From a virus, in IMG/VR virus record IMGVR_UViG_3300032331_003080, positions 1 through 12,854 of that record: DNA of 12,854 nt, one strand, 5' to 3'. Positions 180-12,854 of the stretch are shown piece by piece. The position numbers were made by a program, and so were the translations under genes. The first letter of the stretch is position 1, and each line of letters opens with the position of its first letter. The notes under the pieces are model-generated. The model made no database searches. It was not told the origin of the DNA and saw only the letters and a program-made list of their open reading frames with translations.

Positions 180-189
180 ATCTTGCTCC

Positions 190-408
190 TTATACTTGTT
201 TTTTCTTCTTCACTCGTCCAATGCGATCAGCCTTGTTCCAATCATATGCAATGCCATCTGGGCATACGCCATTGCTCACTGCATCAACACCAAAGCGTCC
301 GCATATTTCAAAATCTTTTCCGTGGATCACCACAAAGGCATCCAGGGTTTTGGCATGAGTCATAGCGTCTGCTAGTGTGGTAAATTCTTGTTGTTCTATT
401 TTGTACAT
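190..408 (-). CDS. hypothetical 72-aa protein; candidate leaderless mRNA
   Basis: ORF track gives 190..414. The first ATG (414..412) abuts the -10 hexamer. The second ATG (408..406) begins 7 nt after the -10. No Shine-Dalgarno upstream. No recognisable family. Confidence 0.5.
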   Translation of the reverse strand: MYKIEQQEFTTLADAMTHAKTLDAFVVIHGKDFEICGRFGVDAVSNGVCPDGIAYDWNKADRIGRVKKKKQV

Positions 409-414
409 TTCCAT

Positions 415-443
415 ATTATAGCATTTTGGAAATATTTGGTCAA
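415..443 (-). promoter_or_regulatory. sigma70-type promoter P1 (class A): TTGACC-17 nt-TGcTATAAT
   Basis: Minus strand: -35 TTGACC at 443..438, -10 TATAAT at 420..415, 17-nt spacer, TGc extended -10 at 423..421. Belongs to a conserved block of about 37 nt shared with P7, P8 and P9. Confidence 0.7.
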
Positions 444-446
444 GTA

Positions 447-956
447 CTACTTATTACTTACTTCTTGCCAGGTATGATCGCCCATGTATCTTACCTGCAT
501 TAAGTACTGGTAATCTTCAGGAATGCCAGTAGACCAATCGGTTGGACCGTTATGTACTAGCAGTGTCTTTTCATGTCTTTTGTGCTGAACCAGCCAATAG
601 CATTTGCCCATTACAAGTTGAAAATTGTATTCTGCGGCATACACCGCATCAGTCACGTCAAGTCTGCGTTTGATATCTTGAGCTTGTTTTTCTAATACTG
701 CTACCAACTCCATGATACGATCATATTCTTGCTGGGCATACATCCTAGCATGATTGATCATTAGGTCTTTTTGTTGTTCGACTGGAACTAGATCAAACTT
801 GGGACCCGATGTGCTGGTAGCATATGGTGTTACATTGCGATTAAAAAAATGTACTAAGGTGTTGCCAGTAGTGACATCAAAACTATCTCGACCCTTGGCG
901 CTGTTTGATTGCTCAGAATCCCGCATGGTCCTTGTGACGTCGACGAGGTTCAACAT
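447..956 (-). CDS. hypothetical protein (about 160-169 aa)
   Basis: Long ORF, last gene of the P2 operon. Start is uncertain: ATG 956 has no SD and overlaps the omega-like gene by 44 nt; ATG 926 has AAGGA only 2-3 nt upstream. No family assigned with confidence. Confidence 0.65.
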   Translation of the reverse strand: MLNLVDVTRTMRDSEQSNSAKGRDSFDVTTGNTLVHFFNRNVTPYATSTSGPKFDLVPVEQQKDLMINHARMYAQQEYDRIMELVAVLEKQAQDIKRRLDVTDAVYAAEYNFQLVMGKCYWLVQHKRHEKTLLVHNGPTDWSTGIPEDYQYLMQVRYMGDHTWQEVSNK

Positions 957-1179
957 CTAGAGTCTTAGTAAGATATTCGCGACCAGTTTTTCCCTCTTCA
1001 ATTTCCTTGAGAGTGGTCAACATAACACCATGTTTGCAATTCACACGTGGACGATCACCACGGCTGATTTCTCTTGCTCTACGACTAGCAATCAAGATTA
1101 AATCGTATCTATTGCCCACAGCCTTGACTGCGTTTTGGCTAGTTAATCCTGCATATTCTTCATGTTCTAAATCAGTCAT
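913..1179 (-). CDS. rpoZ: RNA polymerase omega subunit (RpoZ)-like protein, 88 aa
   Basis: SQNAVKAVGNRYDLILIASRRAREI...TTLKEIEEG aligns with E. coli omega [25 protein letters not shown]...IALREIEEG (recalled from memory). AAAGGA lies 5 nt upstream of ATG 1179. There is an 8-nt overlap (ATGACTGA) with the upstream gene. Confidence 0.8.
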   Translation of the reverse strand: MTDLEHEEYAGLTSQNAVKAVGNRYDLILIASRRAREISRGDRPRVNCKHGVMLTTLKEIEEGKTGREYLTKTLDVEPRRRHKDHAGF

Positions 1180-1465
1180 CTTGGTCCTTTGTTGTTAATC
1201 CGTTTGAGTGTTTGTCACGCAACTGTTCTAAATCTTGGAACAGCCGTTTTTCTTGTGCTGTTAATCGATCCTTGTGCGTCTTGCGTGGATTACCGCACAA
1301 GTAACAGGCCGGATTACCACAGTCCATTGCACGATGCTTGGCATAACGATGTGGCGTCTTGATTTGAGCACCATGAGCCTGGGCAATTTTTACTTGCCTG
1401 GATATGGCCACATCCTTTTTATGCCTGCGTTTTGAATTTAGGTATCTGGCTAAATCGTTACTCAC
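1172..1465 (-). CDS. small basic Cys-containing protein (97 aa), possible zinc-binding
   Basis: GTG start at 1465..1463 with AAGGA 5 nt upstream. Lys/Arg/His-rich, contains CGNPACYLCGNP. First gene after promoter P2 and translationally coupled to the omega-like gene. Confidence 0.6.
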   Translation of the reverse strand: MSNDLARYLNSKRRHKKDVAISRQVKIAQAHGAQIKTPHRYAKHRAMDCGNPACYLCGNPRKTHKDRLTAQEKRLFQDLEQLRDKHSNGLTTKDQDD

Positions 1466-1488
1466 AGTGATCCTTTGTGTTGTTCAAC

Positions 1489-1517
1489 AGTATACACTCT
1501 ATACAGTACAATGTCAA
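1489..1517 (-). promoter_or_regulatory. sigma70-type promoter P2: TTGACA-17 nt-TATACT
   Basis: -35 TTGACA at 1517..1512, which contains the TGA stop of the hldD-like gene. -10 TATACT at 1494..1489. 17-nt spacer. Confidence 0.55.
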
Positions 1518-2278
1518 CCGTTTAGAGCTTGATACGTTCGAGTCATATCAGCACATGTGTACATTTGGTAACTGTTTTTTAAATTCTCAGGCATGGGTAT
1601 CTCGTCAATAGGCACACCAAATTGTTCGGCTACTTGTCGAAAACTTCGAGTTTTACCAGTTCCGATATTGAATATACCACTAACAGGCCTTGTGAGAAAT
1701 CTCAAGTGCATGGCCACAACATCTTGTACAGGAACAAAATCTCTAAGATAATTTTCACTACCTTCAAACACCCGTATTCTACCTGTTTCTTGTGCTTGTT
1801 TTGCAAATTGATGATAAGGACTTGCCTGTGTACCTTTGTGATCTTCTCCGGGACCGTACACATTGAAATATCTAAAACCTTGTACCGTGTTACCACCTTG
1901 GTGTCTAGTATGATGCCGCTCAAACAAATACTTGCTCCAGGCATAGGGTGTGCAAGGATCGGGCGGAGCATCTTCGTTAAAAGTACTAACCAACCCATAT
2001 ACACTGGCTGAACTAGAGTATTGTAAATTGACCCCAAATCGTTTACAGTCATCAAACAGTACGACACTAAAATCATAGTTTTGAGTAAACACTCGGTCCA
2101 CATCACGTTCGGTAGTTGAACTGATTGCACCCATGTGTATGACCCAGTCGTAGTCTATCACTCCTGGACACGGTCCGTCCGCCCATTCAAATGTATCAAC
2201 CTCATGTTCCATTCCGTTAAGAGCCTGTAACATATTGCTACCAATAAATCCTTGATGGCCTGTTAGTAATATTTTCAT
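1514..2278 (-). CDS. hldD: ADP-L-glycero-D-manno-heptose 6-epimerase-like SDR (short form, 254 aa)
   Basis: N-terminal GxxGxxG ([12 protein letters not shown]). [37 protein letters not shown] and [14 protein letters not shown] match E. coli HldD/RfaD blocks [37 protein letters not shown] and SGIFNLGTGRAESF (recalled). ATGA overlap with the cupin gene. Confidence 0.88.
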   Translation of the reverse strand: [254 protein letters not shown]

Positions 2279-2631
2279 TTTTGACTGTCTCCCGGTAACA
2301 CACGATAGTTGTCTTCTACTGAGTCCGGGGTCGACACTTCAATGATAGTGCCCTCTTCTAAACATATCAGTTGATGCGGTTGCAATGGTCTATTTCTCCA
2401 GGTAGTGCCCGGTTTAAGTATTGCATCATGCTGGCTGGCATCATTGGTTTCAATGAATACTACCTTGAACAAACCATCCAATACATACCATGATTCATCC
2501 TTCTCAGCATGGAAGTGCATGCTGAATCGAGCACCGGTATTGAATTTCATAAGTTTGCCACAGTACTTGTCGTTAGTGGCCCAAATCAATTCACTACCCC
2601 ATCCCTTTTCTACATATCCTTCTAATCTCAT
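2275..2631 (-). CDS. cupin-fold protein, type II phosphomannose-isomerase-like
   Basis: KGWGSELIWATNDKYCGKLMKFNTGARFSMHFHAEKDESWYVLDG fits the PMI/GMP type II cupin pattern (WG..E.....YxxK.l.v..G..lS.q.H..r.E.w.V..G). ATGA overlaps on both sides. Confidence 0.75.
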   Translation of the reverse strand: MRLEGYVEKGWGSELIWATNDKYCGKLMKFNTGARFSMHFHAEKDESWYVLDGLFKVVFIETNDASQHDAILKPGTTWRNRPLQPHQLICLEEGTIIEVSTPDSVEDNYRVLPGDSQK

Positions 2632-3386
2632 CGGATTTCCTCTAACGCAGGTGCATACACACCAAAGTGTTGTACAGTGACCGCACTGGCTCGGATTGCA
2701 AATTCTATTGCAGATTTCATACGTTTGGTCACCAGGTATTGATAGGCCAGTGCTGCCAAAAACGTGTCTCCGGCACCGGTCACATCTGAAACTTCTACGG
2801 TAACACCTGGATATTGATGTTCTGCACCATCTGAATAGTATACAGCACCATCACCGCCTTGTGTCACGATCAAATCAGTACAGCCACTGGTGATACGACT
2901 GTGTTCAAGTGCATTGATTTTTACAATGCATCTATCTAGTCTTGCTAGATCAGTTTTTTTGGTATCCACAAATACAGGACCAGAAAAATTCTGTTGTATT
3001 TGTTCTAGAACTTCATAGGTCACTGTGCCTTTGTTGTAGTCGCTCACAACCACGGCATCATACTCCTCAAAGATTTCGTTGAATACTACAGCAGGCTCAG
3101 ATTCAGCATCTGCGTCTATTCGCACTATGTGTTGTTTGCTACGCTGATCAATCAGTCTTGTTTTTACAGATGTATTACCGGTAATAACACCAACTGCACA
3201 GCCTAATCGTTCAAGGTTGGCTCTAACATTGGCAGCCATGCCGTGACGTTGTTCTTCATGGCTGACTTGGAAAATAGGAACAGGTGCTTCGGGACTGAGT
3301 CGATCCACTGTGCCGTAACGGTATATGTCCAGGCAGGTGTCACCGATTACTAATACTTTGAATTTTTTCTGTGGTTGAGAATCCAT
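2628..3386 (-). CDS. hldA: D-glycero-beta-D-manno-heptose-7-phosphate kinase-like (PfkB family; HldE domain I-like)
   Basis: KVLVIGDTCLDIY..G.VDRLSPEAPVPIF is the HldE/RfaE kinase-domain N-terminus. DVTGAGDTF is the PfkB signature. Shorter (252 aa) than the E. coli kinase domain. Confidence 0.82.
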   Translation of the reverse strand: MDSQPQKKFKVLVIGDTCLDIYRYGTVDRLSPEAPVPIFQVSHEEQRHGMAANVRANLERLGCAVGVITGNTSVKTRLIDQRSKQHIVRIDADAESEPAVVFNEIFEEYDAVVVSDYNKGTVTYEVLEQIQQNFSGPVFVDTKKTDLARLDRCIVKINALEHSRITSGCTDLIVTQGGDGAVYYSDGAEHQYPGVTVEVSDVTGAGDTFLAALAYQYLVTKRMKSAIEFAIRASAVTVQHFGVYAPALEEIR

Positions 3387-3732
3387 CTATTCTTTCAAAA
3401 AATACAATGCTTGAGCAAACTTCTGATCCCACAATAGCACGATCGCGATAGTCTGATCCTTTGACCATTATAGCACATTCTGCAACGATGTCAACAAGTT
3501 CCAGATCAGAATCAAATATCCTAACCTCATCTACCGAGCGTAGATTACTCAAGAGTTCTTGCCGTTCTGCTTGTGTATTTACAGGACGGCTCACGCCCTT
3601 CAATTCTTTTACTCGTCGATCAGAGTCAATGGCAACCACAAGATGGTCTCCTAGACTCCTGGCATACGTCAACAATTCTAGGTGTCCGGAATGTAAGATA
3701 TCAAATGTGCCGTTGACTATGATTCGTTTCAT
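3340..3732 (-). CDS. hldC: D-glycero-beta-D-manno-heptose-1-phosphate adenylyltransferase-like (HldE domain II-like cytidylyltransferase fold)
   Basis: NGTFDILHSGHLELLTYARSLGDHLVVAIDSDRRVKELKGVSRPVN...VKGSDY...GFSTTEKI parallels E. coli HldE domain II [46 protein letters not shown]...VKGGDY...GCSTTNII (recalled). The HxGH motif is present. Confidence 0.85.
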   Translation of the reverse strand: MKRIIVNGTFDILHSGHLELLTYARSLGDHLVVAIDSDRRVKELKGVSRPVNTQAERQELLSNLRSVDEVRIFDSDLELVDIVAECAIMVKGSDYRDRAIVGSEVCSSIVFFERIDGFSTTEKIQSISNR

Positions 3733-3860
3733 TAGATCTCTTCGTAGTCAGCTTTGAATCCACCACACTCAGGGCAAGGAAAGTCCTCAGGAAGATCTTC
3801 CCATTTGCCTTCTGTTTCTTCATCGTGTACATGACCACAAATTACGCATACGTGTTCCAT
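3732..3860 (-). CDS. rubredoxin-like protein, 42 aa (missed by ORF track)
   Basis: Hand translation: MEHVCVICGHVHDEETEGKWEDLPEDFPCPECGGFKADYEEI. Contains CxxCG...CPxCG. GGAGG lies 7 nt upstream. TAATG overlaps at both ends (3862..3858 and 3734..3730). Confidence 0.8.
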   Translation of the reverse strand: MEHVCVICGHVHDEETEGKWEDLPEDFPCPECGGFKADYEEI

Positions 3861-4309
3861 TATAGTGCCTCCAACTTTTGTTTGTAAAGATTTGCGTGAT
3901 GTTGCTCTACTCGTTGTAGTGCGGCAAAACGCTTTTCTGCTTTGGCCAACACAGCTCGGAACTGTTCAGCATGTTCGCGGCTTTCGTCAATTTGGTGCTG
4001 TGCTTCTCGAATAGCAGCCTCGTTGCCTTCGTTGTGCGCGGCGTTTTTCATGCGTGGATACATGTAAGTGAACTCTTCAGTTTCGCCCTCAATGGCTTTT
4101 TCCAAACATTCTCGAGTGGTTGGCTTGCCAACAAGCAATTCCAAATGTCCCCAGGCATGTTTGAGTTCTTGATCTGCTGTGTGTTCAAAGTGTTGGGCAA
4201 CATCTTCGTAACCTTCTTCGCGAGCAATACGTGCGAAGTAACGATATTTGATGTGAGCTTGTGACTCCCCAGCAAGTGCGCTTTCTAAATTTTTAATTGT
4301 AATTGACAT
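3860..4309 (-). CDS. rubrerythrin-type diiron (ferritin-like) protein lacking the fused rubredoxin domain
   Basis: LAGESQAHIKYRYF, EHTADQELKHA, IEGETEEFTYMYP and ESREHAEQF give two E...ExxH diiron motifs typical of rubrerythrin. AAGGAG lies 5 nt upstream of ATG 4309. Confidence 0.85.
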   Translation of the reverse strand: MSITIKNLESALAGESQAHIKYRYFARIAREEGYEDVAQHFEHTADQELKHAWGHLELLVGKPTTRECLEKAIEGETEEFTYMYPRMKNAAHNEGNEAAIREAQHQIDESREHAEQFRAVLAKAEKRFAALQRVEQHHANLYKQKLEAL

Positions 4310-4333
4310 ACATTCTCCTTATTAAGTAGTACT

Positions 4334-4363
4334 ATTATATATTATAGTAACAGCCTAAGTCAA
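4334..4363 (-). promoter_or_regulatory. sigma70-type promoter P3: TTGACT-18 nt-TATAAT
   Basis: -35 TTGACT at 4363..4358, -10 TATAAT at 4339..4334. A second TATAAT at 4346..4341 is too close to the -35. The leader AGTACTACTTAATAAGGAGAATGT runs to ATG 4309. Confidence 0.55.
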
Positions 4364-4408
4364 CGGGTTTTACCATTGTATTTTTTAATGATAGTAATAG
4401 ATTTTGCC

Positions 4409-4488
4409 TGGTACCCCTGCTTGGATTCGAACCAAGACCATGTACTCCCTTTTGAGGAGAGTGACTTTACCAATTTGTCTACAGGGGC
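4409..4488 (-). tRNA. tRNA with anticodon CAA (Leu by anticodon), atypical short variable region, CCA encoded
   Basis: Hand fold: acceptor GCCCCTG/CAGGGGT (G1:U72 wobble), D-arm GAC/GTC, anticodon arm CTCTC-CTCAAAA-GGGAG, 8-nt variable region, T-arm CTTGG-TTCGAAT-CCAAG, discriminator A, CCA. Confidence 0.65.
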
Positions 4489-4657
4489 AATAAATATTGT
4501 ATGAAGAACGATCCAGGATCAGTAGCACCGTTGTATAGAGAATTTTCTACAGAGCCCTATGAACCCCAGGTTCACGCTACCACTTGTTGTGTATTTACAT
4601 TAGATCCGTTGTTTATTGCCGCAGATTTAAAATTTCAACTTACTCCGTTATTGAACG

Positions 4658-4912
4658 TTAATCATCCCGAGATACTTGCCGTTCTCTGACCTTCATTCCA
4701 AACCAAGTGCCAACAAATGCACCTGCCAGGGCCGGGATCAAGGCCCAATGGTCAGCAGTATAATTGATAACTGCTATACTAGCAGTAAATGTCACAACCA
4801 TGCTCCAAAAGCTGGCGTGCCAGGGTCTATCATTCTGAATCGATTTTACAAAATACACGTAAATCAAATCAGTAAAGAATACTGCAAAAAATGTTACTGT
4901 GTATTCTAACAT
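4658..4912 (-). CDS. small membrane protein, about 3 predicted TM segments with charged C-terminus
   Basis: Hydrophobic stretches YTVTFFAVFFTDLIYVYFV, FWSMVVTFTASIAVINY and WALIPALAGAFVGTWFG. Tail is KVRERQVSRDD. Start is directly adjacent to the upstream stop (TAAATG). Confidence 0.6.
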   Translation of the reverse strand: MLEYTVTFFAVFFTDLIYVYFVKSIQNDRPWHASFWSMVVTFTASIAVINYTADHWALIPALAGAFVGTWFGMKVRERQVSRDD

Positions 4913-5143
4913 TTATTTTTTCTTTTCCAGTGGGGGTTCTTTGGTCTTGTCAAGTTCATGTGGCTCGGCAAATCTAGATTGGTTTCCCCAGGCTGCCCAA
5001 CTATCCTCAGTAAACAGTCGCACAGGTTTCCAAAAACGTACAATAATATTGTTAACCACAACAATACCGATTACAATCGAAATCAATGCTATCATTGTCA
5101 AAATGCTACCAGCTAGAAACGTTGCGGCGTGATCCATATCCAT
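4913..5143 (-). CDS. small single-pass membrane protein (76 aa)
   Basis: One TM segment (FLAGSILTMIALISIVIGIVVVNNIIV) and a Lys-rich C-terminus. AAGGAA lies 7 nt upstream of ATG 5143. Immediately downstream of tRNA-fMet. Confidence 0.6.
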   Translation of the reverse strand: MDMDHAATFLAGSILTMIALISIVIGIVVVNNIIVRFWKPVRLFTEDSWAAWGNQSRFAEPHELDKTKEPPLEKKK

Positions 5144-5164
5144 GAGTGTGTTCCTTATATGAGT

Positions 5165-5239
5165 TGGTTGCGGGGGAAGGATTCGAACCTCCGTCTTTCG
5201 GGTTATGAGCCCGATAGTCTACCACTGACGTACCCCGCG
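5165..5239 (-). tRNA. initiator tRNA-fMet (anticodon CAU), CCA encoded
   Basis: Sequence CGCGGGG...TCGGGCTCATAACCCGA...CCCCGCAACCA. It has the C1xA72 mismatch and three consecutive G:C pairs closing the anticodon stem, as in E. coli tRNA-fMet (recalled). T-arm GGAGG-TTCGAAT-CCTTC. Confidence 0.85.
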
Positions 5240-5243
5240 TTGT

Positions 5244-5272
5244 ATTATAACTTATTTACAGCTGATTGTCAA
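5244..5272 (-). promoter_or_regulatory. sigma70-type promoter P4 (class B, perfect consensus): TTGACA-17 nt-TATAAT
   Basis: -35 at 5272..5267, -10 at 5249..5244. The tRNA-fMet 5' end (5239) is the 5th nt after the -10. The TAA stop of the upstream CDS (5258..5256) lies inside the spacer. Confidence 0.72.
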
Positions 5273-5966
5273 TGTTTTCTAAAACATAGTCAGCAAATGC
5301 TTGATGTGCTGGTTCAAAAAAATGTCCCCAATCAGTATGGGGAAACTTTTGTTCTAAGCACCATTCGCAAAATTTAGTAGTACCAATTGGCCAATATCCA
5401 ACGTCGATAGTGCCTGGTATGCCCGCAAAACTATCAATGTTTATGATTTTTATATTTTGATTTTTTGCCAACATATTAACTGCAAGAATGTTTTTGAGTT
5501 TGTTTAATCTACCGCGCTGACCATCGCTTTCGTATGTAATCCAATATTTAGAAAAGTCAGCGTATGCATCAGCATCGGATATCATGCCACCAAGACGCTG
5601 TCCTTCTAGCATGACATGATTGCGAGTCACATTATTTAAAACAACATTTCCGTGAGTTACTGCCAACCAACGTTGTTGTTTTTCATACCATATTTCGGTT
5701 CTAGAATCGCCAGTCCAACAAGCAATCACAATGTCATCTTGATCTAGTTTTTGGCTTTCAAATATTCTAAACATAGCATCATTACTGCCTCCAGATATGG
5801 CGTGATTGCGGACTTCATATCCTAGGGCTTGTGCTATTTTAACTGGATAACTTTTGGTATATCCATACTCTTCTAAATTTTGTGATGATGGTAAATTCAA
5901 GCCTGGCTCTTTGTATATTTCGGCACCAGCCGCATGACTACACCCTAATATCAATGCTTTTTTCAT
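5256..5966 (-). CDS. SGNH/GDSL-like hydrolase-fold protein (putative)
   Basis: N-terminal LILGCSHAAG (block I-like, Ser present), ISGGSNDAMF (block III GxND-like), C-terminal EPAHQAF (His block). Distant paralog of 9342..10118. Confidence 0.6.
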   Translation of the reverse strand: MKKALILGCSHAAGAEIYKEPGLNLPSSQNLEEYGYTKSYPVKIAQALGYEVRNHAISGGSNDAMFRIFESQKLDQDDIVIACWTGDSRTEIWYEKQQRWLAVTHGNVVLNNVTRNHVMLEGQRLGGMISDADAYADFSKYWITYESDGQRGRLNKLKNILAVNMLAKNQNIKIINIDSFAGIPGTIDVGYWPIGTTKFCEWCLEQKFPHTDWGHFFEPAHQAFADYVLENIDNQL

Positions 5967-5971
5967 AATTT

Positions 5972-6060
5972 TGGCGGAAAGTATAGGAATCGAACCTATG
6001 CACCGTTATTCACAGTGATGGATTAGCAATCCATTGCCTTAACCACTCGGCCAACTTTCC
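5972..6060 (-). tRNA. tRNA-Ser (anticodon GCU), class II with long variable arm, CCA encoded
   Basis: Hand fold: GGAAAGT/ACTTTCC acceptor, ATGGA-TTGCTAA-TCCAT anticodon arm, variable arm CACTG-TGAATAA-CGGTG, T-arm ATAGG-TTCGATT-CCTAT, discriminator G. Confidence 0.9.
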
Positions 6061-6098
6061 TTTGTTTTCCAGTGTTAGATATTTAACTAAGTATTTTT

Positions 6099-6989
6099 AT
6101 GGTGCCAATATTCTTATTAACTTACAATGAACAGGATTCTTTTGTAGAAATTTACAACGACCAATTTGTACGAACTCACTTCGGCCCCAACAACATACAT
6201 TTTTATGTGTTAGACAATGGCAAGCAACCAAAAATCGAATCTTGGTGTCAACGCCACGGATACACATACTATGCCAGTGAATACAACATTGGCAGTTCGG
6301 GTGGCTACAATTGGATTTTTAAAACAGCATTTCGACTTAGGTTACAAGCGGCTGTATTAATGCAGGCCGATGTTGAAATTACGTCGGCCTGGCCGCTTTT
6401 GTTTACCTATCAACTTACTAGAGCGTTTGGAACGACACATTTTATTACTTGGCCACAAACTTTTCATCACAGTGATTATAGTGCAGAAATATCTTATCAT
6501 GATCTTAAATCAAATTTACCAAATTTAGGAAACCTTGTGGGATTTGATCCGATTATGATGTACCACAAAAATTGTTATTTTGATGAAAATTACGTGGTCA
6601 CACACTGTGATGATTTAGAATTTTTGTATCATATGCGTACTAAAAATATGAATGCTGTCAATGCAATTTCGCTATTGCCTGGTGCAGTAGAAACAGCTCA
6701 ACGATTTGTATTGCCTGGCACCGAAACTCGAACTCATTCACACGTGATAACATTTAATAATGAAGAAATAAGAATACATCATGTCAGCCAATTTTATGAA
6801 AGTCATGATCCTTGGTTAGCAGTTAACAAACCTTATTACGATCTTATGTGGGAACAATCACAATGCCAAACAAGAGCACCGTACGATCCTGCTCGGTGGC
6901 AACAGTTTGGATACCCTGCTTATCCAGTGCAACACGAACTTGATCGGTTTTTTAAACAATATCCAAAATTAACACATGGAGCGGAATAG
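6099..6989 (+). CDS. glycosyltransferase family 2-like protein
   Basis: This is the only convincing plus-strand gene. VPIFLLTYNE (GT2 N-terminal xxTYN motif), VLDNGKQ, YNIGSSGGYNWIFKTA (N.G.aGG.N block), QADVE (DxD-like). No SD upstream. The last 13 nt overlap tRNA-Gly on the opposite strand. Confidence 0.65.
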   Translation: MVPIFLLTYNEQDSFVEIYNDQFVRTHFGPNNIHFYVLDNGKQPKIESWCQRHGYTYYASEYNIGSSGGYNWIFKTAFRLRLQAAVLMQADVEITSAWPLLFTYQLTRAFGTTHFITWPQTFHHSDYSAEISYHDLKSNLPNLGNLVGFDPIMMYHKNCYFDENYVVTHCDDLEFLYHMRTKNMNAVNAISLLPGAVETAQRFVLPGTETRTHSHVITFNNEEIRIHHVSQFYESHDPWLAVNKPYYDLMWEQSQCQTRAPYDPARWQQFGYPAYPVQHELDRFFKQYPKLTHGAE

Positions 6990-7050
6990 CGGAATCGAAC
7001 CGCTGACTTGAACTTGGAAGGATCTCGTTTTACCATTAAACTAATTCCGC
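6977..7050 (-). tRNA. tRNA-Gly (anticodon UCC), CCA encoded, imperfect anticodon stem
   Basis: GCGGAAT/ATTCCGC acceptor, D-arm GTTT-AATGGTA-AAAC, anticodon loop CTTCCAA, T-arm AGCGG-TTCGATT-CCGCT, discriminator U (Gly-like). The AGATC/GTTCA anticodon stem has AxA and UxU mismatches. Confidence 0.72.
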
Positions 7051-7052
7051 AT

Positions 7053-7361
7053 TTAAATTGTTTGCTTTTTAAATTCTTCCTCGGCTTTTTTGTGCAAGAC
7101 AAACCATCTATTATGAATTAAATTAGCATATTCATAATTGTAATCTAATTGTGCATAATCTATTAATTGTTTATACAAATTCTCACTCAAAGTAGGCGCA
7201 TAAAGTTCAACCAAATCAATTAAAATTCCGTTGATACTATTTGCTAGTGTTGTTACCTCAGCAAATCTCTGTTCACAAAGGTTAATAAACACTTGTTCGT
7301 TCACACCATTGAAGTCTGGATTGATTTTTTTTATATAACAAACTTGGTAAAAATTTATCAC
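7053..7361 (-). CDS. C-terminal portion of a frameshift-interrupted hypothetical gene
   Basis: ORF track 102 aa. The nominal start is GTG 7361 with a weak SD. It overlaps the upstream ORF only around the A8 run (7332..7325). See the frameshift finding. Confidence 0.5.
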   Translation of the reverse strand: MINFYQVCYIKKINPDFNGVNEQVFINLCEQRFAEVTTLANSINGILIDLVELYAPTLSENLYKQLIDYAQLDYNYEYANLIHNRWFVLHKKAEEEFKKQTI

Positions 7362-7656
7362 TACTTTCTATAAAAATATTTAATTCATTAAATTGAGCTA
7401 ATTTGTTTTGCCATTCAAAATCATGATCTGGGTGCATGAACATTATAAATCTTTTTAAATCATCTCTCCATATCCATTCATAATCCAACCAATTTGAATG
7501 TGTTCTTTTGAGTGGGTATATACTATTAAGAATATAATTTACTTTGTCTGTAATAGATTGAAAATTAAAAAAATTAAATTTTTCATCTATTAATAATAAC
7601 CATCTTAAGTGATTACCGCCGGCTCCCCAAGGAGCCCAAATTGTTAAATTACTCAT
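7282..7656 (-). CDS. N-terminal portion of a frameshift-interrupted hypothetical gene
   Basis: ATG 7656 with GGAG 5 nt upstream. Very AT-rich. The frame ends 14 codons after the A8 run. No family recognised. Confidence 0.6.
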   Translation of the reverse strand: MSNLTIWAPWGAGGNHLRWLLLIDEKFNFFNFQSITDKVNYILNSIYPLKRTHSNWLDYEWIWRDDLKRFIMFMHPDHDFEWQNKLAQFNELNIFIESSDKFLPSLLYKKNQSRLQWCERTSVY

Positions 7657-7691
7657 CTATGCTCCGAAAAACTTGGCGGTCCCAGGAAGAA

Positions 7692-8432
7692 TTAAACTCC
7701 CGCCGTGAAAGGGCGGCGTCCTGCCCAATATGTGGTTTTTAACCAAGTTTGGTAAATGTGGTCAGCCATGGCTTGATGCTGGATCAAATTTGGTTCAATC
7801 CCGTTCAAGATACCATCACGATCCTGCACACTTGCATATTGTTCTCTAGCCAAGGTCCATTTAGGATCTTCGTCCATAGCCCATTCACGGGCTTTGTCTG
7901 CATCCATCTCTATATGAAACTGCATGGCCAGATGTGGCCCGATAGCAAATGCTTGGTTAGCACAAGCGGCTGAACCAGCCAGGCGTGTGGCACCAGTGGG
8001 TATACTAAAAGTGTCGTAGTGCCACTGTATCACGGTAGAGGTAGGTGCGGAACCAAACCACTGTTGTGTTTCAGGAACATCCTCATATTCAATGGGTTGC
8101 CAACCTATTTCAGGTTGCGGTGATATTCCGATTGTGGCACCTAGTGCTCGAGCCATCAATTGCCCACCCAAACAATGTCCTATGACCGGACGATCCAATC
8201 GCATGGCTTGTAGTATTAAAATTTCTGCTTGGCGATTACTCAGCAAGGGATCATTAGCACTCATGCCACCACCCATCACAGCCAAGGCTGAGTAAGGTTC
8301 TATGCTGACAGGAAACTGTTGCCACAACCCTGCATTGCGTGTCTCATGCGGAATATCGTGTTGGCCCAACCAGGTCACAAGGTATGCAGGACGCTCGGGT
8401 GTTTGGTGTTGTAGTATTAAAACAGGTTTCAT
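7692..8432 (-). CDS. class I glutamine amidotransferase (GuaA-GATase-like stand-alone domain)
   Basis: VIGHCLGGQLMA (nucleophile-elbow Cys) and LAMQFHIEMD (His-Glu) match the GATase1 triad. Visibly higher GC than its neighbours. No SD before ATG 8432. Confidence 0.82.
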   Translation of the reverse strand: MKPVLILQHQTPERPAYLVTWLGQHDIPHETRNAGLWQQFPVSIEPYSALAVMGGGMSANDPLLSNRQAEILILQAMRLDRPVIGHCLGGQLMARALGATIGISPQPEIGWQPIEYEDVPETQQWFGSAPTSTVIQWHYDTFSIPTGATRLAGSAACANQAFAIGPHLAMQFHIEMDADKAREWAMDEDPKWTLAREQYASVQDRDGILNGIEPNLIQHQAMADHIYQTWLKTTYWAGRRPFTAGV

Positions 8433-8449
8433 TGGGATATTTAGTCAGT

Positions 8450-8469
8450 AGAAACCCGCCGAAGCGGGT
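8450..8469 (-). terminator. intrinsic terminator ending the ssrA transcript
   Basis: Minus strand ACCCGC-TTCG-GCGGGT followed by TTTCT. GC-rich stem with a UUCG tetraloop. Confidence 0.6.
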
Positions 8470-8512
8470 CCTGGTGATTTCTGTTACGAGGTATTTCCTA
8501 CCCTAGGCTACT

Positions 8513-8545
8513 TTACGCGGCCAATGCGAACTGTGAGTCGTTAGC
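8513..8545 (-). other. tmRNA tag reading frame: ANDSQFALAA + UAA
   Basis: GCT AAC GAC TCA CAG TTC GCA TTG GCC GCG TAA. The upstream context GCAAAAAAAGTAAAC resembles the E. coli GCAAAAAATAGTC context before the resume codon (recalled). An in-frame upstream GCA (8560) would give AKKVNANDSQFALAA. Confidence 0.7.
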
Positions 8546-8724
8546 GTTTACTTTTTTTGCTTGATTAACGGTCATCGCCTACCGTGTTGCCGTCGCTACT
8601 ATCTAGCTCAATCGATCCTGTGTCATCCCCACCTAAATATACTGTATACACTTAGGTGGAGATGCCGGGCACTGCCCCCGGGTCTTGAACTCCTTCGTTT
8701 TGAAGGGATTACAACAATATTTGT

Positions 8725-8753
8725 ATTATATATTTATTTGATCAACTTGTCAA
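8725..8753 (-). promoter_or_regulatory. sigma70-type promoter P5 (class B, perfect consensus): TTGACA-17 nt-TATAAT, drives ssrA
   Basis: -35 at 8753..8748, which contains the TGA stop of the upstream small CDS. -10 at 8730..8725. Predicted start near A8718. Confidence 0.75.
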
Positions 8754-8917
8754 CCACCACGTCCGGTAACCTTGCGCATGGGCTTACCACCAGGTGAGGG
8801 TGGTGCTTTGCGTTTGGCCGCTTTCTGTTGTGTCTTGCTTAGTTTGGCATCAGGTTGATGTATGCCTTGCTTTTTTGCAAGTGCCTCTTTTATCTCTTCT
8901 GTAAAGTTTTTGCTCAT
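8750..8917 (-). CDS. small basic protein, 55 aa
   Basis: ORF track 8750..8965 trimmed to ATG 8917, which has AGGAG 6 nt upstream. The longer form would overlap the tRNA at 8932..9007. Sequence: MSKNFTEEIKEALAKKQGIHQPDAKLSKTQQKAAKRKAPPSPGGKPMRKVTGRGG. Confidence 0.55.
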   Translation of the reverse strand: MSKNFTEEIKEALAKKQGIHQPDAKLSKTQQKAAKRKAPPSPGGKPMRKVTGRGG

Positions 8918-8931
8918 CGCGTACTCCTGGT

Positions 8932-9007
8932 TGGTGCCTTGGGAGGGAATCGACCCCCCAGTCAAAGGATTATGAGTCCTCTGCTTTGACCGTTAAGCTA
9001 CCAAGGC
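8932..9007 (-). tRNA. tRNA with anticodon CAU (elongator Met or Ile2/lysidine type), CCA encoded
   Basis: GCCTTGG/CCAAGGC acceptor, D-arm GCTT-AACGGTCA-AAGC, anticodon arm GAGGA-CTCATAA-TCCTT, T-arm GGGGG-GTCGATT-CCCTC (G instead of U at position 54), discriminator A. Confidence 0.8.
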
Positions 9008-9015
9008 CCATGTGT

Positions 9016-9044
9016 ATTATATAGTAATATTGTTGCTATGTCAA
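9016..9044 (-). promoter_or_regulatory. sigma70-type promoter P6 (class B, perfect consensus): TTGACA-17 nt-TATAAT
   Basis: -35 at 9044..9039, which contains the TGA stop of CDS 9041..9349. -10 at 9021..9016. The tRNA 5' end (9007) is the 9th nt after the -10. Confidence 0.75.
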
Positions 9045-9349
9045 GCGATTAACCACGTAGTACTACGTTTTAATTCAATGCTTTCTTTTCCATCGTATTC
9101 AGTGATGCGAAACTCTTCACCCTGTGGCACCCACTCAACTATTAGGTGTGGTAATGCGCCTAAAAAGATAGTGGGATATTTGAGTCGGATGTAGATTTCT
9201 AATTTTTCCATTTGCTCAGATTCAACATACTCCACAATAACAGGATCAAATACCAATTCGGGATATTTAGTATTCCAGGTATACCAGCCTGCACCAAACT
9301 CTGGGCTGTACACCACACCTACCTTGCCATCTTGTATTAGTTTATTCAT
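9041..9349 (-). CDS. hypothetical protein, 102 aa
   Basis: Clean ORF with an 8-nt overlap (ATGAATAA) with the upstream gene. No family recognised. Confidence 0.7.
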   Translation of the reverse strand: MNKLIQDGKVGVVYSPEFGAGWYTWNTKYPELVFDPVIVEYVESEQMEKLEIYIRLKYPTIFLGALPHLIVEWVPQGEEFRITEYDGKESIELKRSTTWLIA

Positions 9350-10118
9350 CTTCCATACTTAATAAATTTTCCCATTGAGCTTTGCGATCCCAATAAAACG
9401 GCACCCATTTTTCCTTGTCAACAAGTGTTTTCAAATTGATTAATCGAGTGTTATCTAATTTGAAAGGTAATTTATGTAATAAACATTCAACCAGCCAGTT
9501 AAGATGTACAGCAGGTGATGGTTGAACTTCAGTTTGTCTAATGTTATTGTATTTAGGTTGAGTACTGTACTCGCTCATGCCTGCCCACGGTTTGTGCCAT
9601 GCCCAATTTGCATCTGTTAGTGTATTTTTTTGTGCCAAAGACAAATACTCAGGAGAATACGTAAACATATAATAGTATTGAATATTATTATTGTTAAAGT
9701 AATTTTTTAATAACAACATATAATTATAAGTTCTCAAGTTGGCTTGAGTTTCTTCTATATAAAAATCGTGATAGTGTGCAACTTCGGATTGTGTGCTACT
9801 ACTACTCAACCACCAATTATTATCTCCCAACTTAACTGTATTTTGTGAATACACAGGATCTGTGTTAATAATTGTATTCCACCTGGCGGTGTTGATTAAT
9901 TTATCTAGTCGGCGAGGACTTGCCCATTGCATAATAAAAATTCCGTCAGTAGGTGTTTGTAATGCCGCATTAAGCAAAAACTCATTGCCTGCACCAATAC
10001 CAGCAGTGTTTACTACCTCAACTTTGGGATAAATTGCTTGTAATAATTGCGGCCACTCCGGCCATATATGCCCCATGGCATAGCCATCTCCAAATGTATA
10101 GATTTTTTTTATATCCAT
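9342..10118 (-). CDS. SGNH/GDSL-like fold protein, divergent paralog of 5256..5966 (nucleophile position is Gly)
   Basis: IYTFGDGYAMGH (block I-like with GDG instead of GDS), GIGAGNEF (block III-like), SPAVHLNW (His block). Low GC. No obvious SD. Confidence 0.6.
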   Translation of the reverse strand: MDIKKIYTFGDGYAMGHIWPEWPQLLQAIYPKVEVVNTAGIGAGNEFLLNAALQTPTDGIFIMQWASPRRLDKLINTARWNTIINTDPVYSQNTVKLGDNNWWLSSSSTQSEVAHYHDFYIEETQANLRTYNYMLLLKNYFNNNNIQYYYMFTYSPEYLSLAQKNTLTDANWAWHKPWAGMSEYSTQPKYNNIRQTEVQPSPAVHLNWLVECLLHKLPFKLDNTRLINLKTLVDKEKWVPFYWDRKAQWENLLSMEDE

Positions 10119-10152
10119 CTAGTGGGGTATTGTTCTGCTGGTACGGGCATGA

Positions 10153-10326
10153 TTAATATACCTCTTTAATAATTTCAAATTCAGTTTTGGGATATTTTTC
10201 TTTGAATTCTTCAGATTGCACAAATTTATTAAAATCTGTTGCAGTAAAGAATACCCTTTTGAAAACACTTTGCAATTTTCCCTTTGGGACTATTGTCAGA
10301 TAGACGCTTGTTGCTTTGCCTGCCAT
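10153..10326 (-). CDS. hypothetical small protein, 57 aa (missed by ORF track)
   Basis: Hand translation: MAGKATSVYLTIVPKGKLQSVFKRVFFTATDFNKFVQSEEFKEKYPKTEFEIIKEVY. AAGGA lies 6 nt upstream of ATG 10326. It fills an otherwise empty 230-nt gap. Confidence 0.6.
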   Translation of the reverse strand: MAGKATSVYLTIVPKGKLQSVFKRVFFTATDFNKFVQSEEFKEKYPKTEFEIIKEVY

Positions 10327-10347
10327 TGTGGTTCCTTTAGTTGGTGT

Positions 10348-10674
10348 TTAGTCTGCACGGCTCATCATGTATGCTTTAATGCCGAACTTTTCCAAAGTTT
10401 CGGCATAGGCACGGGCGCCAGTTTCTTTCACATCCATGCTTTGTGTAAAGCTACCACCGGGGTTCCACAAGTCCAAGCCACCTGAGTAAGATTTGCGGAA
10501 GCCCACAGTTTTAAGAGCACGACCTAATTTGGTACTGGCTTTGACAGGTACGTTGACCCAGGCAAAACCACAGTAGGCCATTTCGCCATGTTTGGCAACA
10601 AAGTCTGCTTCGGCTTTACGAGCGGCCTCTGTAGCAGTATTGTGAACGGATTCAATGTTTTCGAGTGCAATCAT
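10348..10674 (-). CDS. hypothetical protein, 108 aa
   Basis: The ORF-track N-terminus (to 10737) starts at the TTG of the -35 hexamer. The real start is taken as ATG 10674 with AAGGAG 6 nt upstream. Sequence begins MIALENIESVHNTATEAARKAEADFVAKHGEMAYCGFAWVNV... Confidence 0.7.
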   Translation of the reverse strand: MIALENIESVHNTATEAARKAEADFVAKHGEMAYCGFAWVNVPVKASTKLGRALKTVGFRKSYSGGLDLWNPGGSFTQSMDVKETGARAYAETLEKFGIKAYMMSRAD

Positions 10675-10704
10675 TCGGGGCTCCTTGTTTGTGTTTATGT
10701 CCAT

Positions 10705-10733
10705 ATTATAGCATTTTGGGAATAATCGGTCAA
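10705..10733 (-). promoter_or_regulatory. sigma70-type promoter P7 (class A): TTGACC-17 nt-TGcTATAAT
   Basis: -35 at 10733..10728, -10 at 10710..10705. It shares 25 consecutive identical nt with P8. Confidence 0.7.
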
Positions 10734-10737
10734 CCAA

Positions 10738-11088
10738 TTACTCACCGTACTCGTCAGACTCTGCGTAATCTTCTGATGCTTCGCAAAATATTTTCATCCA
10801 ATGTTTCTTGGGCAAGGCATGCAACAATTCAGGAGTCACATAACATGGATTTTTGAGTTCGTATGTTTCTCTAGCACGACGGGCTAACTTTTGTATTACT
10901 TTTTCATAAGTTTCAGCAACCACAGGGTCAGCCAACATGTCCACATATATTTTTTTCTTGCTCAGTTTGAACTTCTTGAGCATAACTGGCTCCCAAGTTT
11001 GATCATAGTCGCCGTATGCAATGTCCTTGCACACTTTCTGCAAACTTACTGGGGTTACCTTGATTGTGTTTTTTAAAGTTACTTGCAT
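10738..11088 (-). CDS. hypothetical protein, 116 aa, acidic C-terminal tail
   Basis: ORF track trimmed to ATG 11088, which has AGGAG 6 nt upstream. The track's start is the TTG of the P8 -35 hexamer. The tail is EASEDYAESDEYGE. Confidence 0.7.
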   Translation of the reverse strand: MQVTLKNTIKVTPVSLQKVCKDIAYGDYDQTWEPVMLKKFKLSKKKIYVDMLADPVVAETYEKVIQKLARRARETYELKNPCYVTPELLHALPKKHWMKIFCEASEDYAESDEYGE

Positions 11089-11119
11089 TCTGGCTCCTGT
11101 TTTGTTACTGTATGTCCAT

Positions 11120-11148
11120 ATTATAGCATTTTGGGAATTATTGGTCAA
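11120..11148 (-). promoter_or_regulatory. sigma70-type promoter P8 (class A): TTGACC-17 nt-TGcTATAAT
   Basis: -35 at 11148..11143, -10 at 11125..11120. The TAA stop of the GIY-YIG gene (11140..11138) lies in the spacer. Confidence 0.7.
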
Positions 11149-11470
11149 CCTTTTTGACCCGTATATCTGTGTTCAAAACAGGTGTATACTTTTGTATTAA
11201 TTCCCGCTCCAATTTGTGTGCCTGGGCTTTGCCACGTACAATGTCCACGATTGCAAAATTCACAGCCCGCTCGCCGTTTGTGCGAATTGCTTCGTACAAG
11301 TTCCAACTCTTGCTTTCAGTGCGACTGCGGTAGATGTGCTTGTTAACACGGCTCTGCAGGCTCATGTTAATAGTACGCTGGGTTTTAGCGGTAATACCAA
11401 TGTAGTACTCTTCCCCAATTTGGAGCATGTATACTATATGAGTGCGATCTGAACGTTTCTTTCTTATCAT
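11138..11470 (-). CDS. GIY-YIG nuclease catalytic domain only (110 aa); candidate leaderless mRNA
   Basis: [17 protein letters not shown] (GIY...YIG), R...H (RVNKH), [20 protein letters not shown] (conserved Glu and Asn) resemble the I-TevI/Seg catalytic domain. The only start upstream of the first beta-strand is ATG 11470, 7 nt after the P9 -10. Confidence 0.72.
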
Positions 11471-11476
11471 GTGTGT

Positions 11477-11505
11477 ATTATAGCATTTTGGGCATTTTTG
11501 GTCAA
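11477..11505 (-). promoter_or_regulatory. sigma70-type promoter P9 (class A): TTGACC-17 nt-TGcTATAAT
   Basis: -35 at 11505..11500, -10 at 11482..11477. Downstream sequence is ACACAC then ATG. Confidence 0.7.
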
Positions 11506-11536
11506 CCAAAAAATACTACTACAAAAGTACTACTTT

Positions 11537-11896
11537 TTATGTACGTTCAAGATAACGCAAAAAACGGCTCAAATCCCCATACATAGCATACATCATGGCT
11601 TGTTCACTTCCGAACAAATGCAACACAGGAGTTTTTCCCGGCTCAATATAATATGGACAATCCAATTTCCTGCTCAACACCAACAAGTCGCCCATGCGAA
11701 AAATTTTAGGAACTGCAAACCCATGCGAGGCAATACCGTATTTTCGAAGCATATCATATCCACGTTCAGTAAGTCTAAGTCCATCTTGTTTGGTAAAAAT
11801 CATCCACCAATCAACAAGAGCTTGTTCGTAGGTAAGGCGCTCTTCCGTAGGAAGAAATTCTAACAGTTTAAGAGTGATTTGTTTTTTACTTGACAT
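11537..11896 (-). CDS. hypothetical protein, 119 aa
   Basis: Clean ORF with an 11-nt overlap with the upstream gene. No family recognised. Confidence 0.7.
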   Translation of the reverse strand: MSSKKQITLKLLEFLPTEERLTYEQALVDWWMIFTKQDGLRLTERGYDMLRKYGIASHGFAVPKIFRMGDLLVLSRKLDCPYYIEPGKTPVLHLFGSEQAMMYAMYGDLSRFLRYLERT

Positions 11897-12182
11897 CGGG
11901 GTACACTTGAGCCCCTTGTGTCAAAAGCACGACTGTGAACTTGTCGGTCTTGAATTGTGTGTTGAGTTTACGTGCCAAGTTTTTGGCATGCCCGGGATTT
12001 GAAAAGCTGACCTTCTTGTACTTGGGTCCTGGGTACTGTGTCAGCATGTTAGATGTTTTGAGATTGATAGGCTTGTTGTCGTAAAACACCGCCCAAACAC
12101 CTTCAGAGGCCAATACTTGTTCGGTCTTGTAGGTTTGTTTGTTTGTGTGCTCGATTAATACATTAGGTTTTGGGCGGCTCAT
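11886..12182 (-). CDS. hypothetical protein, 98 aa
   Basis: ATG 12182 with GGAG 6 nt upstream. Lys-rich. No family recognised. Confidence 0.7.
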   Translation of the reverse strand: MSRPKPNVLIEHTNKQTYKTEQVLASEGVWAVFYDNKPINLKTSNMLTQYPGPKYKKVSFSNPGHAKNLARKLNTQFKTDKFTVVLLTQGAQVYPDVK

Positions 12183-12213
12183 CGTTATCTCCGTAGTTTA
12201 TTTATCTAATAAA

Positions 12214-12429
12214 CTAGGGGTTTTTGAAACCACCGCCACTCAATTCTACCGTAACAGTTTCTGTTTTGGATGCTGTTAATTGTGTACGTAATACTTCAAG
12301 AGTCAGCAGTAACTTAGTGATATCACTGTGTAAATCTTTAGCATCGCGCATGTTCATGATGAAGTCCCGTTGGCCACGTGCTTCATGTGCTTTGATACTA
12401 TCAACAAAACGATTTATATGCAGGCTCAT
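12214..12429 (-). CDS. hypothetical protein, 71 aa
   Basis: ATGA start/stop overlap with the MazG-like gene (12429..12426). Confidence 0.65.
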   Translation of the reverse strand: MSLHINRFVDSIKAHEARGQRDFIMNMRDAKDLHSDITKLLLTLEVLRTQLTASKTETVTVELSGGGFKNP

Positions 12430-12782
12430 TTTATATAAGGTGCCAATTCAGGCGGTGTCCAACCTTCTGGCTTGAGCACTTTACCATCTTCACGCTTGCG
12501 AACTTTGCCTGTGACTGAATCAATTTTGGCCAAATTACTACGCATGACTTCGTTCCAGGCACCTTCGGCATCCACACCCAAACTATGGATAGCACCCACA
12601 GTGACCACAAGGATATCAATCAATGCGTCAAGGTCATCATGTTTAGTGTTGCTGGCAATAAGTTCGTTGAACTCTTCACTGATAAGATTACAATATAATT
12701 CATACTGTTTCTCATTAAACTCGCCTACAGACTGATCGCAGGCTCGCATAAATGTTTCTTGGTCTTTAAATGGATTGGTCAT
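12426..12782 (-). CDS. MazG-like (all-alpha NTP pyrophosphohydrolase) protein
   Basis: LISEEFNELIAS (EExxE) and DALIDILVVTVG (DxxD) metal-binding helices, then SNLAKI...REDGKVLKPEGWTPPEL, typical of phage MazG/HisE-like NTP-PPases. Start taken as ATG 12782. The ORF-track extension to 12854 cannot be excluded. Confidence 0.68.
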   Translation of the reverse strand: MTNPFKDQETFMRACDQSVGEFNEKQYELYCNLISEEFNELIASNTKHDDLDALIDILVVTVGAIHSLGVDAEGAWNEVMRSNLAKIDSVTGKVRKREDGKVLKPEGWTPPELAPYIK

Positions 12783-12854
12783 ATTAATCTTGTACAAATA
12801 AATTGGATTGGCCACCCGCCTCTTCTCGTGACTGGAAAGGGCCTTGGTAAGCAT

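Follow-up and report, generated by a model that had tools for sequence, protein, structure and literature searches.

We analyzed a stretch of 12,854 nucleotides (nt) of viral DNA (IMG/VR virus record IMGVR_UViG_3300032331_003080, positions 1 to 12,854), here called the window, whose minus strand carries the elements of a circularly permuted, two-piece ssrA gene, the gene for transfer-messenger RNA (tmRNA). Downstream of a sigma-70-type promoter, the locus presents an acceptor piece, an intervening segment (IVS), and a coding piece with a complete tag frame and a 3'-terminal hairpin (Table 1). An earlier reading of the bare sequence (the original prediction) had proposed such a gene, and every sequence element that it listed lies where it had been placed, including the acceptor strands GGGGAUG and CAUCUCC-A-CC, the T-arm, and the IVS.

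Table 1. Elements of the permuted tmRNA gene and their positions in the window (MFE, minimum free energy)
Feature	Position	Strand	Details
Sigma-70-type promoter	8725..8753	-	-35 TTGACA 8753-8748, 17-nt spacer, -10 TATAAT 8730-8725
Acceptor piece	8655..8718	-	~64 nt including the added terminal A; from Rfam alignments
Outer P2 5' strand UGUUGU	8716-8711	-	Covaries, 8 sequence versions
Local hairpin of acceptor piece	8706-8702 / 8696-8692	-	From MFE folds
P2a 5' strand AGUUCAA	8691-8685	-	Pairs with UUGAGCU 8611-8605
GAC between P2a 5' strand and T-arm	8684-8682	-	
T-arm	8681-8677 / 8669-8665	-	5 bp, 7-nt loop GGCAGUG 8676-8670
Acceptor 3' strand CAUCUCC	8664-8658	-	Followed by discriminator A8657, C8656, C8655
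IVS	8631..8654	-	24 nt; in both Rfam models, aligned to the unpaired loop that separates the acceptor strands
Coding piece	8449..8630	-	~182 nt; full-length beta_tmRNA match
Acceptor 5' strand GGGGAUG	8630-8624	-	
D-loop analogue ACACAGGAUCGA	8623-8612	-	
P2a 3' strand UUGAGCU	8611-8605	-	Innermost P2 helix of the Rfam beta model
Outer P2 3' strand GCAACA	8590-8585	-	
PK1-region hairpin	8584-8581 / 8572-8569	-	
Tag frame	8513..8545	-	GCU AAC GAC UCA CAG UUC GCA UUG GCC GCG UAA
3'-terminal hairpin	8471-8464 / 8459-8452	-	8 bp, UUCG tetraloop; last helix of the Rfam beta model

A permuted tmRNA gene

The Rfam family beta_tmRNA (RF01850) matches positions 8449 to 8767 of the minus strand with 156.1 bits (gathering cutoff of 84; E value of 7.6e-49), in a 319-nt match that runs over model positions 1 to 331, that is, the entire 331-position model. 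The family tmRNA_permuted (RF04321) matches at 8513 to 8716 of the same strand with 136.9 bits (gathering cutoff of 47; model positions 1 to 213). The Infernal search with Rfam models, named in the original prediction as a way to check it, thus calls a permuted tmRNA far over threshold. The order of the parts is that of a permuted gene, as the T-arm, the acceptor 3' strand, and the CC end precede the acceptor 5' strand, with the IVS in between. Chance is excluded by the full-length E value together with the covariation found in relatives (see below), and we consider it probable (about 0.82) that positions 8449 to 8753 of the minus strand are an intact circularly permuted ssrA gene of an uncultured large aquatic phage, proposed to serve in ribosome rescue.

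The determinants of the tRNA-like domain are all there: a 7-bp acceptor stem, the G3:U70 alanine identity pair (G8628 opposite U8660), an A discriminator (A73, here A8657), and a T-arm. The identity pair, already pointed out from the sequence, is invariant in 22 of 22 homologs. The encoded 3' end of the acceptor piece is A-C-C, with U8654 as the next base, so that the terminal A would need to be added posttranscriptionally; the Rfam beta consensus likewise comes without an encoded terminal A (CCACCc). Translation of the tag frame gives (A)ANDSQFALAA and a stop, with GCU at 8545 to 8543 as the resume codon and UAA at 8515 to 8513, which reproduces the predicted tag, and the differences that close relatives show in this frame are mostly synonymous (GCU/GCA, UUG/UUA, and GCC GCG/GCA GCC). 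Judging from its sequence, the gene has the defining features of a two-piece tmRNA that can be charged and encodes a tag, with purifying selection acting on it.

The IVS would be removed during maturation. In the MFE fold of the precursor, it prolongs the acceptor stem, giving a hairpin of 19 bp closed by a 3-nt loop; the precursor helix that had been proposed does exist, but it is longer than the 13 bp given for it. Among close relatives, the IVS is dimorphic, with either 24 to 31 nt or ~86 to 116 nt (L127, L151, and L133, for instance, compared with the window), and the PK1 region comes either as the short hairpin of the window or in a version ~20 nt longer; the relatives listed for these length dimorphisms are the three just named as well as L126, L060, L067, L074, L083, and L012. 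The local hairpin of the acceptor piece (CCUUC-AAAAC-GAAGG, 8706 to 8692) clashes with the middle P2 pairs of the beta model, which are badly paired in the window, so these model pairs are doubtful here and the local hairpin fits better. This hairpin recurs with other sequences, such as UCCGG-CAAC-CCGGA in L029 and CCUAC-AAAA-GUAGG in L016, and L126 and L030 are also tied to it.

The promoter had been described as a perfect TTGACA-17-TATAAT consensus, and it does score 12/12 in our promoter scan, with a transcription start that would lie near 8718 to 8717; the beta_tmRNA model itself carries conserved UUGA...UAUAAU positions at this site. At the other end, the UUCG hairpin that had been taken for a terminator is real and a conserved element of the model, 81% paired with compensatory changes in the 22-sequence alignment described below, but the U-tract behind it is weak (UUUCUACU), and a terminator scan of the window did not flag it (8452 to 8471). 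Relatives show a proper U-run (UUUCUUUUU) after the same hairpin, which in the window is probably an intrinsic terminator of the leaky kind and lies 17 nt ahead of the ATG of the following gene (8432). The small size noted for the gene holds in comparison with one-piece tmRNAs, but ~64 plus 182 nt is normal for the beta-type permuted form, as the Rfam match covers all positions of that model.

Covariation in viral relatives and the ARAGORN blind spot

Homologs were collected by a pattern scan of IMG/VR and by a search with the GATase-like protein encoded directly downstream of the tmRNA, which together gave 152 viral loci, 39 of them with a detectable tmRNA homolog. The helices of the window were projected onto an alignment of 22 sequences, and the pairs were counted. 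Pairing is complete (100%) in the acceptor stem, where 4 pairs are compensatory (variants include GGGGAUG/CAUCUCC, GGGCCAU/AUGGUCC, and GGGCCUG/CAGGUCC), the T-stem is also 100% paired (4 of 5 pairs compensatory), and the AGUUCAA/UUGAGCU helix, which had been recognized as P2-like and is the complementary P2a of the beta model, is 89% paired (5 of 7 compensatory). Overall covariation amounts to 0.326, compared with 0.120 in shuffles, none of 500 shuffles attaining the observed values, and slid helix registers are 38 to 49% paired, compared with 79% in the true register.

The outer P2 helix (8716 to 8711 with 8590 to 8585) is fully complementary in 8 sequence versions when the strands are extracted by anchors, among them UGUUGU/GCAACA, UGCUGU/ACAGCA, UGUGGU/ACCACA, and GACUGU/ACAGUC. 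On the MAFFT alignment only 32 to 34% of its pairs appear, a low value that stems from the misalignment of different P2 modules, and we rejected the reading that this helix is unpaired. In the nearest relative, L120, the neighboring protein is 97% identical and the T-arm, acceptor, IVS, and tag are ~94% identical to those of the window, and both P2 strands, ~100 nt apart, have been replaced jointly, which amounts to a natural swap. Substitutions in homologs, another check named beforehand, therefore compensate the acceptor, T-arm, and P2 pairings and do not break them. This compensatory evolution, together with the synonymous bias of the tag changes across many viral contigs, indicates purifying selection, and the acceptor stem and P2 kept in this way would hold the two RNA pieces together.

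The 5' end of the acceptor piece (UUGUUG, 8717 to 8712) can also pair with UAACAG (8486 to 8481), which belongs to a conserved motif close to the 3' end (CCUCGUAACAGAAA); the MFE cofold prefers this partner over 8590 to 8585. We favor the latter, since the motif stays unchanged where the 5' strand of the relatives differs. In L120, moreover, tRNA-Met is separated from the tmRNA body by ~3.8 kb of extra sequence (1157 to 4926, with three open reading frames [ORFs] of 335 to 394 amino acids), which comes with its own promoter and a P2 5' strand different from that of the window (relative to window 8752/8691). A second insert, of ~750 bp (5237 to 5990, with a 234-amino-acid ORF), separates the tmRNA from the GATase gene and has a duplication of window 8443 to 8382 at its flanks. 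The neighborhood of the tmRNA is an insertion and recombination hot spot.

ARAGORN, the second program by which the gene was to be checked, reports five tRNAs in the window and makes no tmRNA call on the native sequence. In silico edits trace this miss to the scoring threshold. When the T-loop alone is changed (GGCAGUG to UUCGAAU or UGCGAAU), ARAGORN calls a permuted tmRNA with the tag ANDSQFALAA, and the same call is obtained when AAGAC, just 5' of the T-stem, is changed alone to UGGAC; edits of the D-loop or of the CCA alone do not restore it. Because either single-motif edit is sufficient, the miss is a threshold effect of two off-consensus motifs, and we reject the silence of ARAGORN as an argument against a tmRNA. 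The program called 22 and missed 18 of 40 permuted tmRNA homolog sequences, the window and its 11 nearest relatives being among those missed, so that phage tmRNA frequencies based on ARAGORN are underestimates. Viral two-piece tmRNAs with a clean T-arm (n = 42) include 10 with a GGCRGNN T-loop and 8 with a UGCRNNU one. The window tmRNA belongs to a clade of viral contigs largely missed by ARAGORN, and the Rfam models RF04321 and RF01850 should accompany this program, which is the tool of the published phage surveys.

The same silence, together with the off-consensus AAGAC and GGCAGUG, the weak U-tract, and the patchy presence among relatives, could be taken as the mark of a decaying or recently captured nonfunctional copy, or of an attP-type fragment from integration into a host ssrA gene. 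We find either extremely improbable, as both gene halves are complete and have their own promoter, the compensatory and synonymous-biased changes bespeak purifying selection, the odd T-loop is the standard alpha type, and no integrase was found in the window.

Alpha-type elbow and beta-type body

An intact gene thus remains our preferred reading, and its two halves fit different subtypes. Searched in isolation, the tRNA-like core (8618 to 8690) is best matched by alpha_tmRNA (46.2 bits) and the mRNA-like half (8445 to 8617) by beta_tmRNA (74.7 bits). For this reason the gene is, as judged by model fit, a composite or intermediate, with an alpha-type elbow and a beta-type P2, PK1-region hairpin, tag, 3' hairpins, and incompletely encoded CCA. 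The consensus T-arm CCCGGGGGCgGUACCCGG and D-loop analogue AGGAUCGA of the alphaproteobacterial permuted tmRNA (RF01849) are nearly identical to those of the window. The body, in contrast, is not of the alpha type, as it is matched best by the beta model, and the tag has 10 residues, not 12 to 14; the incompletely encoded CCA is a further difference from the alpha form.

With the betaproteobacterial permuted tmRNA (RF01850; Sharkady and Williams 2004, as cited in PMC9004378), the gene shares the gene order, the P2 5' strand GUUGUAAUCC..., the PK1-region hairpin CGGUAGGCGAUGACCGUUAAU, the 10-residue ANDxxFAxAA tag, the terminal hairpin, and a CCACC followed by a base other than A. It departs from the beta consensus in the elbow, with GGCAGUG for UUCGAUU in the T-loop, AGGAUCGA for GGUUUCGAC in the D-loop, and AAGAC for UGGAC 5' of the T-stem, as well as in being carried by a phage. 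The T-loop and D-loop types tend to switch together across the alignment, as would be expected from tRNA structure, since both loops touch in the folded tRNA-like domain. The beta model is also the best match for 13 of 15 relatives, at 92 to 173 bits; L029 reaches 281.7 bits, like a genuine betaproteobacterial sequence, and the window and its relatives score far below this.

The GGCAGUG loop could be regarded as degeneracy or as a phage-specific novelty, and we rejected both, because the motif occurs mainly in alphaproteobacterial tmRNAs and equals the Rfam alpha consensus. The pattern GGGGCAGUNCC-N7-UCCACC, searched for in 185,579 species genomes, hit at least 120 contigs, overwhelmingly from Alphaproteobacteria, and 15 of the 18 contigs tested from this pattern scan carry alpha_tmRNA genes. 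When the halves of the window gene were compared with 120 of these mostly alphaproteobacterial contigs, the tRNA-like half matched 23 and the body half matched 1 (weakly). One-piece tmRNAs (RF00023) of two Candidatus Saccharibacteria contigs (L180 and L195) also fit the GGGGCAGUNCC...UCCACC pattern, so this type of T-loop is not confined to alphaproteobacterial permuted genes.

Phage-borne permuted tmRNA as such is already known, and the rarity implied in the original prediction was overstated. A two-piece ssrA gene has been described in Melnitz, a myophage of OM43/Methylophilales, and ARAGORN gave two-piece calls in 53 of 18,146 phage genomes, including those of cyanomyophages, the phiCbK group, and pelagiphages (S-CAM1, S-CAM3, S-SSM7, S-CRM01, HTVC008M, and Mosig are among the phages named) (PMC9004378); a 2025 tmRNA database, the source of RF04321, holds 79 phage tmRNAs (PMC11915505). 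The Melnitz gene resembles that of the window in its two-piece form within a large aquatic myophage-like genome, its early-type promoter in front and protein gene directly downstream, its T-loop type (GGCAGUA), its AND...ALAA tag, and its patchy distribution (17 of 47 contigs for Melnitz and 6 of 33 loci here). It differs in being of the alpha type overall (alpha_tmRNA, 106.7 bits when analyzed here in the same way), with an IVS of ~130 nt instead of 24 nt, a 14-residue tag (ANDNYVPVDYALAA) instead of one of 10 residues, and a glutamine riboswitch at its 3' end; an Rfam scan found no riboswitch of this or any other type in the window, and the two genes share no detectable DNA similarity. One-piece tmRNAs are known in mycobacteriophages of the Bxz1 group and in Bacillus phage G, according to the relevant parts of PMC4131195; they are likewise phage encoded, in large genomes, and with no phage smpB reported in those parts, but they have the standard nonpermuted form and belong to phages of other host phyla. 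What is new here, modestly, is the alpha/beta composite, the coordinated swap of the P2 module, the ARAGORN blind spot, and the lack of a homolog in cultured phages.

More speculatively, this phage tmRNA lineage may join an alpha-type elbow to a beta-type body and swap P2 modules between near-identical phages by real recombination, a scenario that we think unlikely but worth stating. If it were true, permuted ssrA modules would be shuffled and spread between bacterial classes with large aquatic phages as their vehicles, and the alpha and beta permuted forms might be linked through phages instead of being fully independent inventions. The composite and the coordinated P2 swap offer useful natural material for asking which tmRNA modules must coevolve.

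Phage context and proposed role

All genes and RNAs of the window lie on the minus strand, save one ORF (6099 to 6989). ARAGORN finds genes for tRNA-Leu, tRNA-Met, tRNA-Ser, tRNA-Gly, and a second tRNA-Met, and the neighbors include small ORFans, a GIY-YIG homing endonuclease, MazG, and rubrerythrin, with PHROG matches among them. A four-gene module for heptose-nucleotide sugars (1514 to 3732, minus strand; cytidylyltransferase-like protein, PfkB kinase, cupin, and NAD epimerase) agrees in gene content with the module of T4-like cyanomyophages such as S-CAM1, where it is located among structural genes, and P-SSM2; its kinase (2628 to 3386) is 40 to 44% identical to those of cyanomyophages (tblastn). 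This module is the only clue to host or lineage among the neighboring proteins, MazG, the GATase, and DUF2452 being uninformative. Relatives sit on IMG/VR contigs of 121 to 344 kb, also within tRNA arrays and auxiliary genes. No homolog was found among 50,697 GenBank phage records by megablast, by blastn, or by a relaxed search (E of ≤5), which gave short hairpin matches only. Context and the IMG/VR classification make a phage origin of the locus well supported but indirect, since the contigs with the exact locus are short and no cultured phage is close.

Several points weigh against our interpretation. It is based on sequence, with expression, processing, charging, and tagging being predicted, and ARAGORN does not call the native gene. 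The five tRNA genes of the phage all encode their CCA and the tmRNA does not encode its terminal A, and the T-loop is without the canonical U54, U55, and A58, yet it has the normal alphaproteobacterial form. In RNAduplex, cognate and noncognate P2 strands are not discriminated (-13.1 versus -10.8 ± 3.3 kcal/mol), the window's own partner being outdone by 10 others, and the RNAcofold interaction gain is not significant against shuffled acceptor pieces (-11.5 versus -9.0 ± 3.5). A tmRNA is present within 6 kb in 6 of 33 syntenic loci, which makes it a dispensable accessory gene. Family searches of the window proteins revealed no smpB, no structural (virion) gene is found in the window, and the contigs with the exact locus are all ≤12 kb.

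The last two points, as well as the betaproteobacterium-like score of the related L029, would suit a bacterial locus, that is, a chromosomal ssrA gene on a misclassified metagenomic contig or host DNA beside a prophage. Such an origin is highly improbable in our view. The one-strand layout with repeated consensus promoters, the five tRNA genes interleaved with small ORFans, a homing endonuclease, and MazG, the heptose module common to cyanomyophages, and the dense tRNA arrays on related contigs of up to 344 kb all speak for a phage. Moreover, tmRNA is nearly universal in bacteria and present in only a minority of the syntenic loci, and in a sample of 120 bacterial contigs the best match reaches 37 bits, compared with 215 for viral relatives.

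For a phage gene, the rescue of stalled ribosomes during infection is the most likely use. Host RNA polymerase would make a precursor of ~270 nt early in infection, RNase P would cleave it 5' of G8630, and the 3' end of the upstream piece would be trimmed to C8655, with the missing A supplied by the host CCA-adding enzyme. The resulting pieces of ~64 and ~182 nt would remain base-paired and be alanylated by the host alanyl-tRNA synthetase through G3:U70. The charged RNA would enter stalled ribosomes with host SmpB and EF-Tu; reliance on host SmpB follows from the lack of smpB in the window. Translation would resume at GCU 8545 and add ANDSQFALAA, so that the ribosome would be freed and the peptide marked for ClpXP-type proteolysis. 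Two-piece processing, alanylation, ClpXP targeting, and ribosome recycling are in this way predicted for the phage tmRNA, which may form, with the neighboring tRNA genes, a module for translation support by which ribosomes stay available while mRNAs are degraded during infection.

The need for host SmpB could also mean that the RNA acts as a competitor, one that outcompetes the host tmRNA for SmpB and stalled ribosomes and thereby reroutes or blunts trans-translation or a defense that depends on it. The strong consensus promoter would give the high expression that such a hijacker requires, the elbow and the body are of different types, and a tRNA-like-domain-only RNA of mycobacteriophage DS6A that inhibits tmRNA is a precedent, as cited in PMC4131195 and PMC11915505. 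However, a pure decoy would not need a complete tag frame with its ALAA end and stop, conserved through synonymous changes, and all the elements for productive trans-translation are intact, so we judge this role improbable. The known phage two-piece tmRNAs are extended here by a clearly intact representative and by a clade of at least a dozen viral contigs, in support of the view that large aquatic phages are equipped with translation-support modules in which tRNAs and tmRNA are combined.

Several other features of the window deserve mention. An 88-amino-acid ORF (913 to 1179, minus strand) matches RNA_pol_Rpb6 (RNA polymerase omega/Rpb6 family) with 45.5 bits (cutoff of 26) and gave no match in the PHROG search; it may be a phage-encoded omega-like subunit. 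The only sizeable ORF of the opposite strand (6099 to 6989, plus strand, 296 amino acids) is called as a gene by metagenome gene callers, fills the gap from tRNA-Ser to tRNA-Gly, overlaps the 3' end of the latter, and has no match in Pfam and PHROG searches. Between tRNA-Met and the tmRNA, gene callers predict a Lys/Arg/Pro-rich ORF of 55 amino acids (8917 to 8750, minus strand), for which family searches, including PHROG, gave no match and whose TGA stop falls within the -35 hexamer TTGACA of the tmRNA promoter. This promoter is not special to the tmRNA gene, as the minus strand of the window has eleven promoters of this quality (four scoring 12/12 and seven 11/12), and perfect ones also precede both tRNA-Met genes; such promoters are the usual style of this phage. 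The set includes promoters at 9044 to 9016, 5272 to 5244, and 3494 to 3467 as well as a 53-nt repeat family. In the four copies of this repeat (395 to 447, 10685 to 10737, 11100 to 11152, and 11457 to 11509), the minus strand reads TTGACC-17-TATAAT, with a conserved leader behind it.

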